Shown: piece after piece, positions 55,630 to 64,000 of the stretch
How the letters are laid out: each line of letters starts with the position of its first letter
Position numbering within the stretch: the first letter of the stretch is position 1
Assembly: GCA_002269645.1 (NCBI GenBank)
Contig: NIVC01001330.1
Span: forward strand, 248,222-312,221
DNA: 64,000 bases
Direction: 5' to 3'
Source of the DNA: Macrostomum lignano
Lineage: Eukaryota
The notes under the pieces: generated by a model
The model's database searches: none
The model's input: the letters and a program-made list of their open reading frames with translations, nothing else
What the model was told of the DNA's origin: nothing
Made by a program: the position numbers and the translations under genes

Positions 55630-55897
55630 AGTAGTATAGAAAAAGACGCTTCTAGACCCAGAGCACTTTTTTAATGACCGTTTTAAGGGTCTAGAGGGGG
55701 GACACGGGGGGTAAATAAAAAAACACATCTAAACACCATTAATACATCTAATCACCCATAATCACCCCTAACAATAAAAATCACTTCCCAACACTTCCAA
55801 ACACTCCCCAACACCCCCCTCGCGTCCCCCCTCTTAAGACCTTAAAAACGGCCATTAAAATAAGGTCTGATCTGTAAGCGTCTTTTTCTATACTACT
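55630..55897. repeat. Terminal fold-back: ~82-bp imperfect inverted repeat around a G-free spacer
   Basis: 55630-55651 AGTAGTATAGAAAAAGACGCTT is the exact reverse complement of 55876-55897; pairing extends imperfectly (55630-55711 vs 55814-55897); 55712-55821 contains no G. Confidence 0.9.
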
Positions 55898-55954
55898 ACT
55901 CTATAACCCCTTGCCCGCGCCGCAGGCGCGAAGGGTCTTTTTCTGTTACTAAAA

Positions 55955-56269
55955 ATGACCCGAGTTTACACCTTTTCTGTTAGTGATACTTTTGAGACTG
56001 TTGCTAAAAATGCAGAGATAATAAAACAACATATTTTGAATGGAATAATTGATGAAGTTTATTTAAAATATGACGACAAGCATGACCTAAAGCTTTATCC
56101 ATTAGAGCTAGATGAGATGTATGATTTAGAACAAGAGGGTGAGTTAATATTTCAACTTGGAGATTATTTAAATTCGGATGATTGGGAGGTTAGATCAACA
56201 GATTCCGAATCAACAAATAGTTCATATGAAACCAGTGATTCAGAGAATGAAAGTGAAATTTTTATGTGA
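55955..56269 (+). CDS. Polinton hypothetical protein, 104 aa, acidic Ser-rich tail
   Basis: Intact ORF preceded by TAAAAATG; no recognised family. Confidence 0.65.
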   Translation: MTRVYTFSVSDTFETVAKNAEIIKQHILNGIIDEVYLKYDDKHDLKLYPLELDEMYDLEQEGELIFQLGDYLNSDDWEVRSTDSESTNSSYETSDSENESEIFM

Positions 56270-56285
56270 AAAAAATATTTAAAAA

Positions 56286-56510
56286 ATGAACTATTATTCT
56301 ATAACAGAAACGACGTTTATTATGAAAAATATATATAAAAAAATGAAGGTAAATTATTCCTACATCGGAAATGTTCCAATTAATGAACTTAATGAAAATT
56401 TAAGTTTGATAACAGTTGAACAAATGTCAATAATAATATTAGTAACAATAATAGTAATAATATTGTTTTTGTTTGTAATAAAAAATTTACTACCATGTTG
56501 TCTTAAGTAA
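56286..56510 (+). CDS. Polinton small single-pass membrane protein (74 aa or shorter) ending ...KNLLPCCLK
   Basis: Strongly hydrophobic segment SIIILVTIIVIILFLFVI; TAAAAAATG start, with an alternative TA(n)TG start at MKVNYSY. Confidence 0.55.
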   Translation: MNYYSITETTFIMKNIYKKMKVNYSYIGNVPINELNENLSLITVEQMSIIILVTIIVIILFLFVIKNLLPCCLK

Positions 56511-56520
56511 CTGTTTGAAC

Positions 56521-58128
56521 TTAGTTCGCAGACATTATCTGGTTCTCATAAAAAGAACCCAATATTTCTTCACCATCCTTATCAGCAATTATATAGGTTG
56601 TAGGATTTGTATTTAAAACTTTACTGATGGTAAATTTCTCACTTATTTTCCAATATCCTTTTCTTCCCTTTTCAAACTTATCTTTCCATTTATAGATATA
56701 AACAGAATCACCAACCTTAAAACCTTTAGTTTTCTTTTTTTCAAAATCTCCAAAAGTAACCCTAACATTTTCAGGATTGTTATAAGCTTGTTGAGGAGTC
56801 ATCTTTATCGCCGAATGATATGAATTGTTATAATCTTTCACTACCTCTGGTAATATTTTTACCCATTTTTGGTTACCATTAAGACTAAACTGAAACCATA
56901 ATTTCTTACCTAAAGTTCTATTAAATCTTTCTATTAATGCGTTTTTACTCTCTCCATAAATAGAATAAATTTTATTAATATACTCCCCATTCGCGTCCTT
57001 TTTCCTTTCTTGTCCTTTTTCAAAATGATACAATTTATACATGTGAGGATTGTAAAATTCTTTTCCTTCGTCAACACACAACCTTTCACTTTTTTCTCCA
57101 AGACTTCTAAAAGCAGCAGCAACCTCCTCTCCCTTTTTGGATTTTAAAGGAACAGCCCACGCGTATCGAGTAAAACCATCTAATATGGTTAAGATATATT
57201 TATATCCTCTTTCGTTCGGCATCGACATTAAATCAGCATACCAAATTTCATTCTTTTTGAAGTTCATGATTTTTCTATAAAATTTAGGTTTTCGATATTC
57301 TTTATGAAGAATCTTTGCCTCATCAGAACTTAACCCGCCGCCACTTAACAACAAACACTCAACACAATTATTTCCATGTTGATTATAATTAATTCCCAAA
57401 CCAAATTTAACTTTAGACTGCAAGATCTTTTTAACCATCCACCTAGTTAATTTTTGACCTACCGATAATCCCTGCAAGTTATCTAATCCTTGAATCATTT
57501 TTTGATCGGCTTCATGTTTTAATCTTAATGCTTCCTCGGGTGTGTTCTTATCAGCATCTCTGTATGCTAAGTCATGATAGTATGCTAACCAATCAATTCC
57601 ATTTATGGGAATTGAATCGGCTTTTGGGGTGTCATCAGGATTTAATCTCAAATCTAAGCGAGTGCCGGGTAGTTTACCCTCAATCTTTCGAAAGAGGCTG
57701 GAGCACACCTTAAGCGGCGATAATTACCGCCCATCTCCGTCTGCTCTCTGAACCTTCTCCTTATATTTAAAATACTTAGGAGCTTGGCTGCGCATTGCCA
57801 CCGTGTCTTCAAGCTTTTTACCATCGAACCATAGGTTCGCGGACGAAGTCCGATTGGGAAGAGGAGTTACCTCTGTTCCTTCAAAAGATTTCTCAATTGA
57901 AGTGGTACTTGAAGCTGTATGACGGGTTTCACGCAATTTGGAGATGTCGCCACAAATAGTGACTAGCAAGGACATTGCCTTCCTCACTCAGGCCACGGGT
58001 TAACCTGTGAAGTTCATTGATGGTAGGTGTAGCTCACCCGTATACCTCCCAGTAGTAAATATTGGTGGTAAGCTTGTTAATCCTTTTTGAACATCTAAAA
58101 ATCCTCCTTCAAATACTATTTGGTTCAT
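56521..58128 (-). CDS. PLA2X (parvovirus-VP1-like phospholipase A2)-retroviral-like integrase fusion, two exons separated by a group I intron; predicted 424 aa after splicing
   Basis: Exon 1 58128-58003 (MNQIVFEGGFLDVQKGLTSLPPIFTTGRYTGELHLPSMNFTG) joins in frame to exon 2 57669-56521 (PGTRLDLRLNPDDTP...PINGIDWLAYYHDLAY...). This restores the ELHLPxxNFTGPGT Ca-loop and the HD catalytic motif. Integrase DDE triad: WYADL, LCVDEGKEF, ALIERFNRTL; C-terminal FKVGDSV and GSFYE. Confidence 0.88.
57670..58002 (-). ncRNA. Group I intron, subgroup IC1-like, 333 nt, no homing endonuclease ORF
   Basis: Sense strand: P1 exon CAGGU with GCCUG (U.G at the 5' splice site); P2.1 CUAGUC...GGCGAC; P3 AUCUCC (57945-40)/GGAGAU (57738-33); P motif AAAUUGCGUGAAA (57939-27); Q CAAUGCGCAGCC (57797-86); P5a CUUCAAGU/GCUUGAAG with an A-rich bulge; P5b CUUCAA/UUGAAG with GAAA loop; P6 GCC/GGU and CUCCU/AGGAG; R GGUUCAGAGAGCAGA (57754-40); P8 GGCGGU/AUCGCC; S AAGGUGUGCUCC (57711-00); P9 with GAAA loop. 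The last base reads A rather than the expected omega-G. Confidence 0.9.
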
Positions 58129-58612
58129 TTTTAATGTTTAAAAAACATGTTTCTATCAATTTAATAATTTCTAAATATTGGTCACCATATAAAAAATTTA
58201 AAGCAAATTCCCCAGTTAACAAGGTAACTCCATTATCAAATACTTTTTGTACGGGGTTTTTAGTAGTATTATTAATGCAAATATAATATAAATCAAATTC
58301 GGGATTAACATATTTAAATTCTAATAACTTTTGAATATTTCTAAATCGACTTGATGAATTATCTGTGTTATCAGAAGATTTTAACTCTAACGCAACTTTT
58401 CTTTCTGTATGAATTAAATCAATTTTATTTACTTTTTCAAAACCAAAATGTTTAATAGCTAATAATTCATAAAGAGATCCAAGTCTCATTTGTATTGTTT
58501 TAATACGGTTTGCAATTATTAATTCATCTTGAAATATTTTATTTAGTATTCTGTCAGAACCAACTTTATCATAAATAGGCTTACAAAGGTGGTCTTTTAT
58601 TGTTTCATCCAT
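58109..58612 (-). CDS. PD-(D/E)xK nuclease resembling type II restriction endonucleases (Eco47II/Sau96I-like), 167 aa
   Basis: Motif order G.LYE...IDLI.....ALELKS..NTDNSSS; probable start at the TAAAATG (58612) rather than the upstream TTG; its stop overlaps the start of PLA2X exon 1. Family call is from motif memory, not a search. Confidence 0.6.
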   Translation of the reverse strand: MDETIKDHLCKPIYDKVGSDRILNKIFQDELIIANRIKTIQMRLGSLYELLAIKHFGFEKVNKIDLIHTERKVALELKSSDNTDNSSSRFRNIQKLLEFKYVNPEFDLYYICINNTTKNPVQKVFDNGVTLLTGEFALNFLYGDQYLEIIKLIETCFLNIKNEPNSI

Positions 58613-58640
58613 TTTATAAAAAAATAAATTTAACAATTAA

Positions 58641-59312
58641 TTAAACTCCAGTATGTCCAGCAGCTTTCGCAGCAGCTAAAACAAGTTTTCGCGGTGTTTT
58701 AAATCCATCACCAACAGCTGGTTTGTTATTTATAGAATTAACAATCCATTTATACAAGCTGGTATTTTTAACAGCTCCTCCTAACTCATCATAAAAAATT
58801 CTAGCACTTATTAATTCATCCCTAGTATATAAATCGGGGTTAAATTTTACCCTAGGGTTCGTAATAATATTAAATGCTCCGCCCAATTCTCTATATAGTT
58901 CATTTCGATCTTTAACAACGTTACCAATTCGATAATTACCACCACCTAAATCTGTCACAGCAATACTAGTTGGTGCAGGTCTCGGATATTGTTCAACTCC
59001 ACCCCTAATCTCTTCACGTCTAATTTCTGCAACTCTAAATATTGCTTGATCAGTCTCATAAGCAGGCGGCTCATCCAAAATTTCATCCTCTTTTGGCTCC
59101 GTATTTTTAGCAATTTTTTCCAGAAGATCTTTATCTGTTTTTTCTAGTTCACTAATTTTCCCAGTAATAGGATTAACAAAAGGAGCAGCAAATCTTTCAC
59201 CCGCTAATTGTATTCCTAACTTTCTTTTTTGTAAATTCCTAACAAAATCAGAATATCTTTGCTTCTCTTTATAAATCGCTAACTCTCCATCAACGTCCAT
59301 AAATTGACTCAT
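58641..59312 (-). CDS. Polinton hypothetical (possible virion core) protein, 223 aa
   Basis: Intact ORF with TAAAAAATG start, divergent from the capsid gene; N-terminal charged helix followed by PF..PI; function not assignable. Confidence 0.7.
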   Translation of the reverse strand: MSQFMDVDGELAIYKEKQRYSDFVRNLQKRKLGIQLAGERFAAPFVNPITGKISELEKTDKDLLEKIAKNTEPKEDEILDEPPAYETDQAIFRVAEIRREEIRGGVEQYPRPAPTSIAVTDLGGGNYRIGNVVKDRNELYRELGGAFNIITNPRVKFNPDLYTRDELISARIFYDELGGAVKNTSLYKWIVNSINNKPAVGDGFKTPRKLVLAAAKAAGHTGV

Positions 59313-59346
59313 TTTTTAACATAAAAAACTTTTTTAACTTAAAAAA

Positions 59347-60883
59347 ATGGCTGAAACAAAAACTATGTGGAGTGATAAATTTCATTTCAAAAAGCACCGA
59401 CAGTATATTAATGAGGTCAGAGCAAGAGATTTAAATTATACCCTACCAACAAGTGATAATTCAAATAACTTTACTACTGGAACGGTAACTTTTGACATCG
59501 GCGCAACCAACACTATATTGGATATGAAAAATGCGTTTTTCCGCGTTAGATGGTTGTATACTAGAAATGATGGAACTGCTCTTGCAGCCGGAGATATCGC
59601 AGATCGATCCGGAATAATAATAGAAAATGATTGGTTTTATAAATGTTTTTCCCAAGCAAAACTGTTAATGGTGCTGAGGTTGAGACATCATCAAACCCCG
59701 CAGAGATTAATGGAGTTTTGAAACATTTAAATTATACTTATTTATCAAAACAAGTTGGTGATAATGTTGGGTGGATGCCGGATAAAGGTAACGGTCAAGC
59801 AGTAGTTTTCCCTAATGTACAAAACGCAGCCGGTGCAGATACTGCAGCGCTAATTGTTTACCTTAATACAAACATAGTTCCAGTTGTAACCACTATGACT
59901 AATACAAAAGATATTAATACTGGTTTTATAGATCGTCAGAATAAATTCCCAGTCGCGGTTTTAACCACAGCAACAGCATATGAGCAGGACTTTTCAATCT
60001 TTCCACTATTTGGGTTTTCTCACCAAATCGGGTATGGAAAGGATTAAAATTTGGGATACAGTTGCAAATATCTGGTGGATATCAGCCTAGGATACTTTAT
60101 GGAACCTCAATTTCAACCGATATAGCAGTTCGTATAGATTCAATTCAATTAGTCGTACCAACTATTGAGGTAACAGCCCCACTTTTAAAACACATCGATA
60201 ATCAGTTAACGCATGATCAGGAAATATTTTATTTGAATCGTCGACATTTTATGCGAACCATTAATAATAACCAGGATTCATTCCAGTGGCAAATACTGAC
60301 ATCAAAACGTCGGGTGAGATATATTTTTGTTTGGTTTAAGATAACAAATAGAAGGAGTAAAAGAGCAAATGGGATTTATATTGGCTTCAATCCGGTGCGC
60401 ATAGCAGAACAAGCAGCCACCGCAACAGACAATGCGGCTGCAGCTATTAACGAGTTTAATGTTCAGAATATCCGCCTGCAGGTTGATGATCAATATTATC
60501 CGGTTAAAGACCCCCTAAATTTAAATATAGCAAATAATAATGTTAATGATTTTATAAAATATTATCAAGATTATGCTAAAAATGAAGCGTATGCCGTCCC
60601 TCAGTACACACACAGAGTTTCTAAACATTCATCCAGTGGTTGTTTATGATCTAACGGCACAGAAAGAAAACGTAGCCAATATTGGACTTAATTATATGTT
60701 AGAGATTAATAAAACCGGTAATCAGGCACTTGACGCCACGTATTGTTTCTAGAGGAATATATGTCAATTGCTAAAGCTGATGCACGATTGTTCGGGACGC
60801 ACTTTAGCTCGCACTGCAAAGCATCAACACCTGTAAAAATGGTGCAGGTCTCGACCGTCGCGCTATTTAAATTATTTCTTTAA
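59347..60883 (+). pseudogene. Major capsid protein (double jelly-roll, hexon/PY-like), broken by several 1-nt indels
   Basis: Fragments in shifting frames: ILDMKNAFFRVRW...ENDWFYKCFSQAKL.VNGAEVETS.NPAEINGVLKHLNYT; IDSIQLVVPTIEV; FQWQILTSKRRVRYIFVWFK; NIRLQVDDQYYP; YDLTAQKE. Size and position fit a Polinton MCP; the C-terminal end is uncertain. The indels could be sequencing errors. Confidence 0.75.
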
Positions 60884-60884
60884 A

Positions 60885-61669
60885 ATGGTAAAGGCAAAAC
60901 ACGATAAGATATTCCAAATGATCCTTTTCTTTGTTTAGTAATTGGTGGTCGGGTAAAGGAAAAACACACTTGTTTATCGATTTATTAACAACGATGGAAT
61001 GCTAGACTATAATAATTTAATAATATTATACTAACAAACCTAGAATAAAATATTATGAATTTCTTAAACATGGATTAAAAAACAAATTAAAAAAAGATGT
61101 CTTGTTTAGAATGTTAAGAGCATATGAGCAATATGAGGATGATGACGAACCGCGATTTAATCTAGCAGACATTGAGGATTTATGTAAAACAATGGCACAA
61201 CAGCCAGAAAACATCACCGATCGCCCCGAAGGGTCGCGGACTTCGTCCGATCGCCCAACTGTATAGAGTATCAACCCGATTAGCCTATGATCAAATTCCA
61301 AACATGATAAAACACTAATTATTTTTGATGATTGTATTAATGACGGTGATCAAGAATTGCAAAAGGAAATTTTGTTAGTGTGTAGAGGAGATGGAATTGG
61401 AGCTTTTTATCTTACTCAATCCTTTAGAGAATTAGAATCGATTATAAAAAAGAATGCTAGCTTGTTGTGTAATGTTTGATTTAGATAACTATGATCTACA
61501 AAATATTCACGCTAGATTTAATCCCGGGATTGGATGCAAAACCATTTAAAAGTATGTGTAAAAAAATTTGGGATGATAGCCAATACAAACATATTTATAT
61601 CAATCCGAGGTTAGAAAGGAAAAATAGAATTTAAAAAATTTGATAAAAGACGATGAGGAAGAAGAATGA
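60885..61669 (+). pseudogene. Genome-packaging ATPase (A32/FtsK-like), frameshifted
   Basis: IPNDPFLCLVIGGR[G]KGKTHL (Walker A with one base missing), KTLIIFDDC (Walker B), AFYLTQSF and KKNAS; in-frame stops and indels present. Confidence 0.85.
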
Positions 61670-61719
61670 TCGTCCCATAGGTCGCGTACCTCTCGGTACG
61701 TTAATTTCCCACTATAAAA

Positions 61720-62501
61720 ATGACTACAAATTTAAATACTATAAAACACATTGGTAGATCGAACTAATTCAAAATTTAGTACAACATTACAGTTATAATG
61801 ACAACCAGCGAGCAACGGATTCAATTGCGCGATCCATTACAATTGATCAAAGCCTAAGTTATCAAATAGGTTTAATACTATTTTCGGTTTTCAACATGCC
61901 TCAATTAATTAATGCAACAAATAATCAATTTAGATATTTAAGATTCCGGAGCCAATTGGAACAACATTTAGCGCTTAACCCAGGAGCGTATAGCTATACT
62001 GATTTGAATGCTTATATAGAAGGAGAATTAACAACTAATGGTGATTGGTAGCAGGAGCAATTGTTATAGGTGTTGATTTACCGTCTGGCAGATTCACACT
62101 ATCACTAGGATCCGGATATCAGGTTGATTTCACAATTGCAAATTCACTCAGAACCATACTTGGATTTAATTCCCGAATAGTTACCACATCAAGCACCGGT
62201 GATACAGTTGGAAATATAGAGGGTGGAGTAAATACAATTAATATAACAACCGACATATCAAACGGTGGTTATATAACAGACGATAACGGAGTTTTGGTTC
62301 AACGTGGAATTATTTATTCAATCCCATTTCTTGCTGTTCCAATTGGAGAGAAAATGATTGTATCACCTCAAACCCAATATATTACCCATTAAATCAATAT
62401 AATGTTCAATCAATTTATATTAGGATTGTAGATGAAAGCGATAGATTAATAAGTTTTGGTGGGCATCAATAACATAATTTTTACGTATAAAACAGGTTTA
62501 A
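61720..62501 (+). pseudogene. Minor capsid protein (penton, single jelly-roll), frameshifted
   Basis: LRTILGFNS...VNTINITTDISNGGY...GIIYSIPF.AVPIGEKMIVSP...IRIVDESDRLISFGG pattern typical of Polinton pentons. Confidence 0.75.
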
Positions 62502-62513
62502 TCGTATGTAAAA

Positions 62514-62693
62514 ATGGGTAATAATAATATAATTTAACTAAAAAAACAATCAGAAAAAGTTAAAAAAGCTGAAGATAATTACGAACTAGAACTAGCAAAA
62601 TTAAGGCAGTTACAAGCTGATAAAATAAGAAAGGAATTGTTAAAACCCACACCTACGAAACTAACTAAAACCAAGAGTTTTTCAGGAACATAA
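62514..62693 (+). pseudogene. Small coiled-coil ORF (~59 aa) beginning MGNNN, one apparent indel
   Basis: TAAAAATG start; KKQSEKVKKAEDNYELELAKLRQLQADKIRKELLKP after restoring one base. Confidence 0.4.
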
Positions 62694-62694
62694 A

Positions 62695-63130
62695 ATGACC
62701 ATGACGTGGGATGATTTTAAACAAAGATATGGAACGACACAACAAGCAATATCGAATTAACAAATTGGGCGAGGCAGTTAAAAATAAAACCATTCAGATG
62801 TGTTATGCGAGATGAGATAAAGACTTACCACAATATGGATCTTTCATTGTTAATATTGAAACAACAAAAGAAAATGGTGTTCATTGGTCAGCAGTTTATT
62901 CAAAACCAAAACTTGTTTATTTTTGATTCATACGCGCTTCCTCCGTTACAGGAAATAAAAGACAAATTTAATCATACTAAAAATCGTTTATGTGGAGATC
63001 ATCACGAACAATTTCAAACTTTGATAAAAGTTATTGCGGGCAAGCGGCGTTGTATTTTTTATATCGACTTTCGAATGAAGCTCGTGTAAACCCCGAAGTA
63101 TTTAAGACTATTTTAGACTCTATAAAATAG
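62695..63130 (+). pseudogene. Adenain-like (Ulp1 family) cysteine maturation protease, frameshifted
   Basis: Catalytic H-D-Q-C in order: IVNIETTKENGVHWSAV, FIFDSYALPP, FQT.DKSYCGQAALYFL across 1-nt frameshifts. Confidence 0.85.
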
Positions 63131-63140
63131 ACAGTAAAAA

Positions 63141-64000
63141 ATGTTATTTTCTGGAACACCCTCATGGAACGGAACAACAAGTAGTCTGGTGGTGGCACAT
63201 CTGGGGAATAAGTGTTACATTTGGAGATAATCGATATATTAATGAAGATGAAGGTTATAAAAAAAGTGAAGTTGATACTAAACTAAATTTAAAAAGAAAC
63301 GTTGCAGATTCCTATACTAAAACTCAAATAGATGATTCACTAAATCTGAAACGGAACGTAGCCGATTCCTATACCAAAACCGAAGTTGATAATTCATTAA
63401 ATTTAAAACGCAATACAGCCGATTCTTATACCAAAACGAGAGTTGATAATTCATTAAATTTAAAACGCAATAACGATTCTCTTATACCAAAACCGAAGTT
63501 GATAATTCATTAAATTTGAAACGGAACGTAGCCGATTCTTTATACCAAAAACCGAAGTTGATAATGGATTAAATTTAAAAAGAGATGTAACTGATTCTTA
63601 TTTCGAACTGATTCTGATTCACGTTATGTTCAAACCCCGCAAACGCGGAAACCTAGATATGAGCAACAACCGAATTATAAATGTTTCAATTACAACTAGT
63701 GATTCAGTGGTTGATAGAACTATGTCGATAATCAAAGTTGCCACTCGTTGGTAATATTAATATGAATAATTTTAAATTAACAAATTTATTATTTGGAACA
63801 GAGAACGCAGACTCGATAACTCTAGGCCAAGTAACGAGCGAGCTAATGCAACCGACGCCGATATTTTTACCACGCCGCTTACATCAAATACTTCAAATCC
63901 TGATGTTGTTCTTACAGCATCTGAAAATGGCAAACAGCTTTTCGAGTTGGAGATGGAAGCCTTGCGACACAATGGTCACCAATACCGGAACACAACCAAT
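63141..64000 (+). pseudogene. Fibre-like protein with 19-aa (57-bp) tandem repeats KRNVADSYTKTEVDNSLNL, frameshifted, runs toward the window end
   Basis: About 6-7 repeats at 63260-63605 followed by LDMSNNRIINV...YVDN, a pattern common in viral fibre/tail proteins. Confidence 0.6.

Follow-up and report, generated by a model that had tools for sequence, protein, structure and literature searches.

What keeps a group I intron inside a protein gene of a virus-like element that is integrated in an animal genome? A 2024 review describes nuclear group I introns as confined to rRNA genes, and the class as absent from animals save basal lineages and some sharks (PMC10964413). Here, in the genome of Macrostomum lignano, a group I intron interrupts a gene for a phospholipase A2 (PLA2) and integrase protein in well over a hundred integrated copies. 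We analysed one of these copies in a stretch of 64,000 nucleotides (contig NIVC01001330.1, positions 248,222 to 312,221; hereafter the window). A preliminary description of this DNA noted that the intron opens with an in-frame stop codon, and suggested that it might act as a switch on the life cycle of the element, dependent on Mg, GTP or a host factor, or might simply be a parasite of the parasite. Our analysis indicates that the intron is likely to be the shield and hitch-hiker of a nuclease, and not an on/off switch.

Results

A Polinton-like element in an animal genome

The element occupies the right-hand end of the window:

55630 to 64000, plus strand: left-hand 8.4 kb of a Polinton-like element that is integrated here, with a terminal repeat from about 55630; ended by the contig end; contains no GGNCC

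The host genome is that of an animal, as judged by 86 Wnt matches. The left end of the element is present in the window, and the copy stops before its gene for pPolB, which was identified in a sibling copy (PF03175, 67.8 bits). The sibling C3967 is about 17 kb long and has terminal inverted repeats that start with AG and a 6-bp target duplication, both ends having been read separately. The A32 ATPase was recognized in the sibling L141 (Pox_A32, 30 bits), and the capsid and protease candidates gave no Pfam match. Among six copies that are identical to the window over 801 nt and whose left end could be read, five different flanks were found, two copies sharing one flank (one more copy gave no end); the form seen in the window has therefore moved recently. 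Relative to L141, the capsid-region, ATPase and later open reading frames (ORFs) of the window (59347-63513) are fragmented, by decay or by assembly error. The left terminal repeat (55630-55900) contains an inverted repeat of its own of about 260 nt, and each end could form a long hairpin.

The intron interrupts the PLA2 domain

The gene lies on the minus strand and comprises three segments:

58003 to 58128, minus strand: first exon, of 42 codons; aligns with the N-terminal part of homologues that lack the intron
57670 to 58002, minus strand: group I intron, IC1-like by our assignment, 333 nt, no ORF; Rfam 61.1 bits; ends set by intron-less copies and G-ending relatives; structure backed by covariation and a fold z of -2.6
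56521 to 57669, minus strand: exon 2 of the PLA2-integrase gene; 382 codons and a stop

Exon 1 starts with the ATG at 58128, and its 42 codons end in NFTG and are followed in frame by TAA, exactly as the preliminary description had read them. Natural intron-less copies in the same genome cross the site in one open frame (424 amino acids in L064, 423 in L065). Because these copies fix the junction, exon 2 begins at 57669 and the intron extends from 58002 to 57670; the 424 residues of the protein reconstructed earlier match the frame of L064. As also described before, exon 2 encodes the remainder of the PLA2-like domain, including its HD motif, and the rve integrase, whose core lies entirely within this exon (31.9 bits in the window against a cut-off of 32.6, and 39.5 bits in a sister copy).

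Alignment of the reconstructed protein with its homologues places the exon 1 segment contiguous with exon 2 in eight database proteins, where it runs on into GPGT, and in three intron-less genome copies, and the full-length product therefore requires splicing. The PLA2-like profile PF08398 is matched over positions 2-72 of 80 in an intron-less copy (31.6 bits, over the cut-off), compared with positions 21-72 only in the window exon 2 alone (16.9 bits). The intron therefore interrupts the early part of the PLA2 domain, at a GPG motif. Its location in this domain, as originally claimed, is thus upheld; by analogy with parvoviral PLA2, the motif may be the Ca-binding loop. The label PLA2X in the earlier name is loose, since no protein-X domain was detected in the protein (no Adeno_PX match at E 0.1); a separate ORF gave a weak Adeno_PX match (E 0.04). 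A PDB sequence search with the PLA2 part returned no match.

An in-frame ATG at 57498, downstream of the PLA2 HD motif and upstream of the entire rve core, would give a product of 325 amino acids, and ten ATGs lie between the stop after 42 codons and this ATG. The proposal that phospholipase and integrase both depend on splicing, unless an internal start is used, holds for the full-length product; the rve core lies wholly behind this in-frame ATG. When table-11 starts are used, ORF calling begins the gene at GTG 57708 inside the intron, as the preliminary description had noted.

The PLA2 domain is bracketed by an LSGG motif (exon 2, about 57340-57320) and an xxGG motif at the start of exon 1, which are also present in homologues. 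We take these motifs to resemble adenovirus-protease sites, and PLA2 and integrase may be separated by cleavage there.

Structure and ends of the group I intron

Two features within the intron are referred to below:

57700 to 57748, minus strand: P7 strands; the guanosine-binding G-C pair 57746/57701 is intact
57824 to 57853: GC-rich double hairpin of 30 nt inserted in the P5 extension; some copies only

The Rfam model RF00028 matches positions 58012-57679 of the minus strand with 61.1 bits, against a gathering score of 50, and related introns score 80.6-88.9. The exon sequence CAGGU pairs with GCCUG of the intron to form P1, in which the last base of exon 1 is the U of the U-G pair at the 5' splice site. 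The predicted fold contains P2, P2.1, P3-P6, P5abc and P8. Across 11 related cores, 94.9% of the cells are paired and 16 of 61 pairs have changed on both sides, as against one to three in slid controls and with 0 of 500 shuffles as high, a shuffle result that is not a probability, as the rows are related sequences and the window copy itself supplied the structure. In P7 four of six pairs have changed on both sides, and the G-binding pair is invariant in all 11 rows. P5a/b/c, an extension characteristic of subgroup IC1, and P2.1 fold in the prediction; our tentative IC1 label itself follows the P, Q, R and S motifs.

The last base of the intron (57670) is A, a departure from the usual G. Position 57670 as the 3' end is supported by G-ending relatives with the same spacing, by P9.0 and by the intron-less copies; a 3' splice site at the end of the Rfam match (57679, a G, in frame, adding three codons) is a minor possibility. 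Public contigs from six runs presumed to be RNA and one of unknown kind were compared with the window and with an intron-less copy. Intron-containing pieces were present, and neither a spliced joint nor a bridging contig was found; because such contigs lose rare forms and may be DNA, this comparison is uninformative either way. Contig ends at 58003 are accounted for by a variant 30 nt away. Splicing of the window copy, with its terminal A, is a prediction from sequence and structure.

Double hairpins of about 30 nt and rich in GC, like the one in P5, also occur at about 61237-61265 and at the exon 1 starts of L056, L061, L068 and L075. Present in some copies and absent from others, they lie in intron loops and also, without breaking the frame, within genes, and have the look of tiny mobile elements.

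Distribution of the intron and the switch proposal

The genome yielded 511 candidates for an exon 2 start, of which 150 were scored, and 81 places belonging to the family of the window copy, picked by similarity and not at random, were examined. The intron is carried by 78 of these 81 copies: 46 have the intron type of the window (type A) ending in A, 12 have type A ending in G, and 20 have a second type (type B); three are intron-less. The sister family (about 60% identical) includes further intron-less copies, and its introns end in G in all 17 callable cases (three without a call), as does that of the metagenome contig L161. Type-B introns (L061:890-1223 and 19 other copies) occupy the same 5' site and have P2 and P5abc in common with type A but different core motifs, which we take to be IE-like. 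Their 3' end is ambiguous, for no candidate G exactly restores the intron-less reading. Rfam detects none of the type-B introns and also misses three divergent type-A loci.

These counts bear on the idea that the A-ending lineage splices poorly or never, its copies spreading on PLA2-integrase supplied by other copies or on the 325-residue integrase from ATG 57498. A terminal base that departs from a near-universal G opposite an unchanged G-binding pair fits this idea, as do the position of rve entirely downstream of ATG 57498 and the presence of G-ending and intron-less copies in the genome. Yet A-ending copies are the majority and are diverse, 29 of the 46 retain an exon 2 frame of at least 370 codons, and five different flanks surround those that match the window exactly over 801 nt. 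P9.0 and the core pairs are kept as well. In exon 1 and the 57 codons before ATG 57498 most substitutions are synonymous (8/5 and 12/3 in L075, for instance), a signal that is confounded by homing into old haplotypes. Moreover, the hexacoral mitochondrial intron ND5-717 is a natural A-ending group I intron that splices (PMC8146996, PMC6545197). We regard poor or absent splicing of the lineage as very unlikely.

The distribution also bears on the suggestion of a switch, according to which the intron would be retained as a gate on PLA2 and integrase, regulated by Mg, GTP or a host factor and tuned down by the terminal A. Unspliced RNA does stop after 42 codons, ten ATGs precede the next useful start, and the full-length product depends on splicing; but that dependence would be true of any such intron. 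Of the 58 type-A copies, 46 have A as the last intron base, and for the A-ending ND5-717 intron PMC6545197 gives less efficient splicing and raises retention as possible regulation. However, the stop in the first codon is not conserved: TAA or TAG occurs only in the intron lineage of the window, TAC being found in 19 introns of the sister family and TAT in the metagenome intron L161. Introns whose first codon is not a stop still reach one at codon 5, or at codon 9 in type B. We thus rejected the initial stop as a design feature and consider the in-frame TAA incidental. Intron-less copies with open frames and the 20 with another intron at the same 5' site likewise disagree with a gate, no sensor-like element was seen in the intron, and the site and nuclease linkage described below are accounted for without regulation. 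As an explanation of why the intron lies where it does, a regulatory gate is in our view quite improbable, and the life-cycle switch put forward earlier is not borne out. In a weak form, slow splicing may lower output since the intron ends in A.

A nuclease gene in or beside the intron

Immediately upstream of exon 1 lies a further gene:

58109 to 58612, minus strand: gene for a 167-residue Eco47II/EcoO109I-like PD-(D/E)XK nuclease, free-standing; shares 20 nt with exon 1; relatives encode it within the intron

Pfam PF09553 (Eco47II) was matched in all 12 aligned members of this nuclease group, the window protein scoring 20.6 bits, under the cut-off of 25.9. A structure model (pLDDT 89.5) finds its closest fold in EcoO109I (Z 9.7, rmsd 3.7, 166 residues aligned; Foldseek E 2.8e-4), the next having Z 6.0, and residues E49, D65, E76 and K78 are retained in all 13 copies read. 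A PDB sequence search with the nuclease gave no match.

In the sister family an intron occupies the same site and houses the nuclease gene in its P2.1 loop, after exon 1 and ahead of the ribozyme core; this layout was seen in 16 of the 18 loci retrieved and also in L070 and L074. The exceptions are L159, in which the gene is free-standing, and L160, which is truncated after the ORF. The independent metagenome contig L161 also has the nuclease in an intron at this site, in a host gene that is 39% identical, the nuclease being 54% identical. Six of nine near homologues of the nuclease in the database continue into a translated ribozyme core; in L070:473-1156 and L161:160-786 the nuclease frame extends through the core, so that the same nucleotides encode protein and form structural RNA. 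The wider nuclease family comprises 296 representatives, among them P0050, a 542-residue fusion of a C5 methylase with this nuclease family. None of the 12 PF00145 matches in the genome (best candidates scored) lies on a contig listed with the nuclease, and scans of viral contigs found nothing.

Within the family of the window, the slot upstream of exon 1 holds the nuclease gene in 29 of 81 copies and another ORF, mostly HNH-like, or none in 52. None of the three intron-less copies has the nuclease, which is not significant (chance about 0.26). Between the window and L064, L062 and L046 this slot swaps among the PD-(D/E)XK gene, Cys-rich ORFs of 189-205 residues and an unrelated ORF of 155 residues. 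By their motif we take the Cys-rich ORFs to be HNH-like; they gave no Pfam match. A candidate rule that intron type tracks upstream nuclease type was rejected, as both intron types are found with both ORFs.

EcoO109I recognizes RGGNCCY (PMC3299994), and an Eco47II homologue is assigned GGNCC (PMC10305163). From its family and modelled fold, the nuclease encoded here is predicted to cut GGNCC.

Loss of GGNCC outside the intron site

The empty intron site is a Gly-Pro codon pair, and its DNA must therefore read GGNCC; the intron is inserted after the third base of this word. The element in the window (8,371 nt) contains no GGNCC, compared with 10.8 in shuffles (0 of 100 as low), and L172 has none against 13.9 expected. 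In each of three sets, the window element, copy C2574 and sister stretches, GGNCC ranks first for depletion among 256 spaced words, the next word standing at 0.41-0.55 of expectation. In 24 long frames of both families, from which two G+C-rich, host-like frames had been dropped, four GGNCC occur where about 44 are expected, and all four are empty intron sites; 27 control frames near other pPolB genes have 85 against about 137 expected, bearing in mind that the controls are richer in G+C (43-62% versus 29-40%) and that the copies are not independent. At the protein level, Gly-Pro is found nowhere in intron-bearing copies and once, at the site, in each intron-less copy. Stray words occur at L176:9117 and at L185:1843; a sister copy with the nuclease lies near the second. 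Copies without this nuclease (52 of 81 have another ORF or none in the slot) lack GGNCC to the same degree, and its loss therefore mirrors a shared gene pool and not a gene in cis. In the 55.6 kb of host DNA within the window, GGNCC occurs 76 times.

These data also speak to classical homing alone, with a long nuclease target centred on the empty site, an intron that is a neutral parasite, and a loss of GGNCC that has another or older cause. The coexistence of intron-encoded and adjacent free-standing nucleases fits known homing and collaborative homing (PMC3984707), copies differ less from one another in the intron (4.5%) than in exon 2 (6.6%) or exon 1 (10.5%), and a long target would spare the host. 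The mosaic signal is modest: three of 435 copy pairs have near-identical introns but an exon 2 at least 4% apart. A long target, however, explains neither the loss of every GGNCC nor that of Gly-Pro from all the proteins, and the nuclease is small (167 residues), its nearest families being restriction enzymes with short sites. We therefore judge homing of this kind alone to be unlikely.

Discussion

Our analysis establishes the structure and site of the group I intron, the predicted fold of the nuclease, the location of its gene within or next to the intron, and the depletion of GGNCC. On the basis of these results, we lean towards the following explanation, holding it probable with a fair margin of doubt: the intron in this animal Polinton gene persists as the partner of a nuclease predicted to cut GGNCC. 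GGNCC has disappeared from the element everywhere but at the conserved Gly-Pro pair; in the DNA that one site is broken up by the intron, and the message would be made whole by splicing. A switch accounts for the position of the intron less well than do the GGNCC word and the nuclease encoded within or next to the intron, and the alternative offered alongside the switch, a parasite of the parasite, comes near to this reading, with the amendment that the mobile intron is partnered with a nuclease.

During replication, the nuclease would cut GGNCC in intron-less rival copies and perhaps in other DNA. The lineage would have recoded every GGNCC that it could, leaving the site fixed by the PLA2 loop to be hidden by the intron. 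Breaks at empty sites may be repaired from intron-bearing copies, spreading the intron by homing, which in the family of the window would be collaborative homing by a free-standing nuclease gene. The intron would thereby act as a methylase-free immunity. With 76 host sites in 55.6 kb, an enzyme with a 5-bp target would be harmful to the host if it were not confined, and we surmise that expression of the nuclease is limited to the replicative phase.

The near fixation of the intron (78 of 81), the loss of GGNCC, the nuclease linkage and the absence of a methylase on the nuclease contigs all count for a shielding role. Counting against it are the sub-threshold Pfam score of the window nuclease, the loss of GGNCC in copies without the gene, the stray sites, the host sites, the modest mosaic signal and the terminal A. 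A bolder version seems to us conceivable but somewhat more doubtful than not, namely that an animal-infecting Polinton carries a methylase-free restriction system, in which a short-site GGNCC nuclease attacks rivals or host DNA, the virus has recoded all possible sites, and an A-ending ribozyme intron active in the animal nucleus hides the one site that the protein fixes.

Should splicing occur, these copies offer a natural test of ribozyme splicing in animal nuclear mRNA, including that of an A-ending form. That a single DNA word has vanished across an element of 17 kb predicts the target of a nuclease beforehand. It further implies that these Polintons co-replicate and compete as viruses, which bears on an active viral phase of animal Polintons.

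Comparison with known systems

A literature search, with most subscription papers outside its reach, found no description of group I introns from animal Polintons; PMC10748475 and 10.64898/2026.10.13.758929 touch on introns only briefly. The nearest precedent is that of RF00028 introns in Polinton-like viruses of Rhodomonas lacustris, Paulinella micropora and Desmodesmus armatus (PMC12220804). Like the intron described here, they match RF00028, measure about 310-375 nt and interrupt a protein-coding gene in a Polinton-like element that has been integrated. They were reported for a few protist groups only, in a short gene that lacks annotation and precedes the capsid gene, and no nuclease was assigned to them; the present intron is in an animal, in a PLA2-integrase gene, and has a linked nuclease.

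The adintovirus PLA2X protein combines a parvovirus-like PLA2 domain with a C-terminal protein-X domain (PMC8502044). It resembles our protein in placing a PLA2 domain in an animal Polinton, but here the domain is fused to an integrase and no protein-X domain was detected. The window nuclease shares with the Eco47II family (PF09553) and EcoO109I a profile match, the predicted fold and the E...D...ExK residues; unlike type II restriction systems, it has no methylase found alongside and its gene is located in or beside an intron. The ND5-717 intron differs from that of the window in being mitochondrial, obligatory and at an unrelated site.

A masking role has a parallel in Bodo saltans virus, in which endonuclease-bearing group I introns in viral protein genes were proposed to mask the target and to harm intron-less competitors (PMC5871332). 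That system concerns a giant cytoplasmic protist virus with HNH and GIY-YIG enzymes, and its splicing was demonstrated by RT-PCR; ours is read from sequence. Phage introns can home collaboratively, with the help of a free-standing endonuclease encoded next to them (PMC3984707, PMC11296320), F-CphI/psbA being a listed case (PMC6083498). There, as in the window, an ORF-less intron stands beside a free-standing nuclease gene, and in relatives the same nuclease lies inside the intron. The present system differs in that it belongs to an integrated eukaryotic virus and in that it combines a nuclease of a type II restriction family, a predicted 5-bp site and the loss of that site throughout the element.
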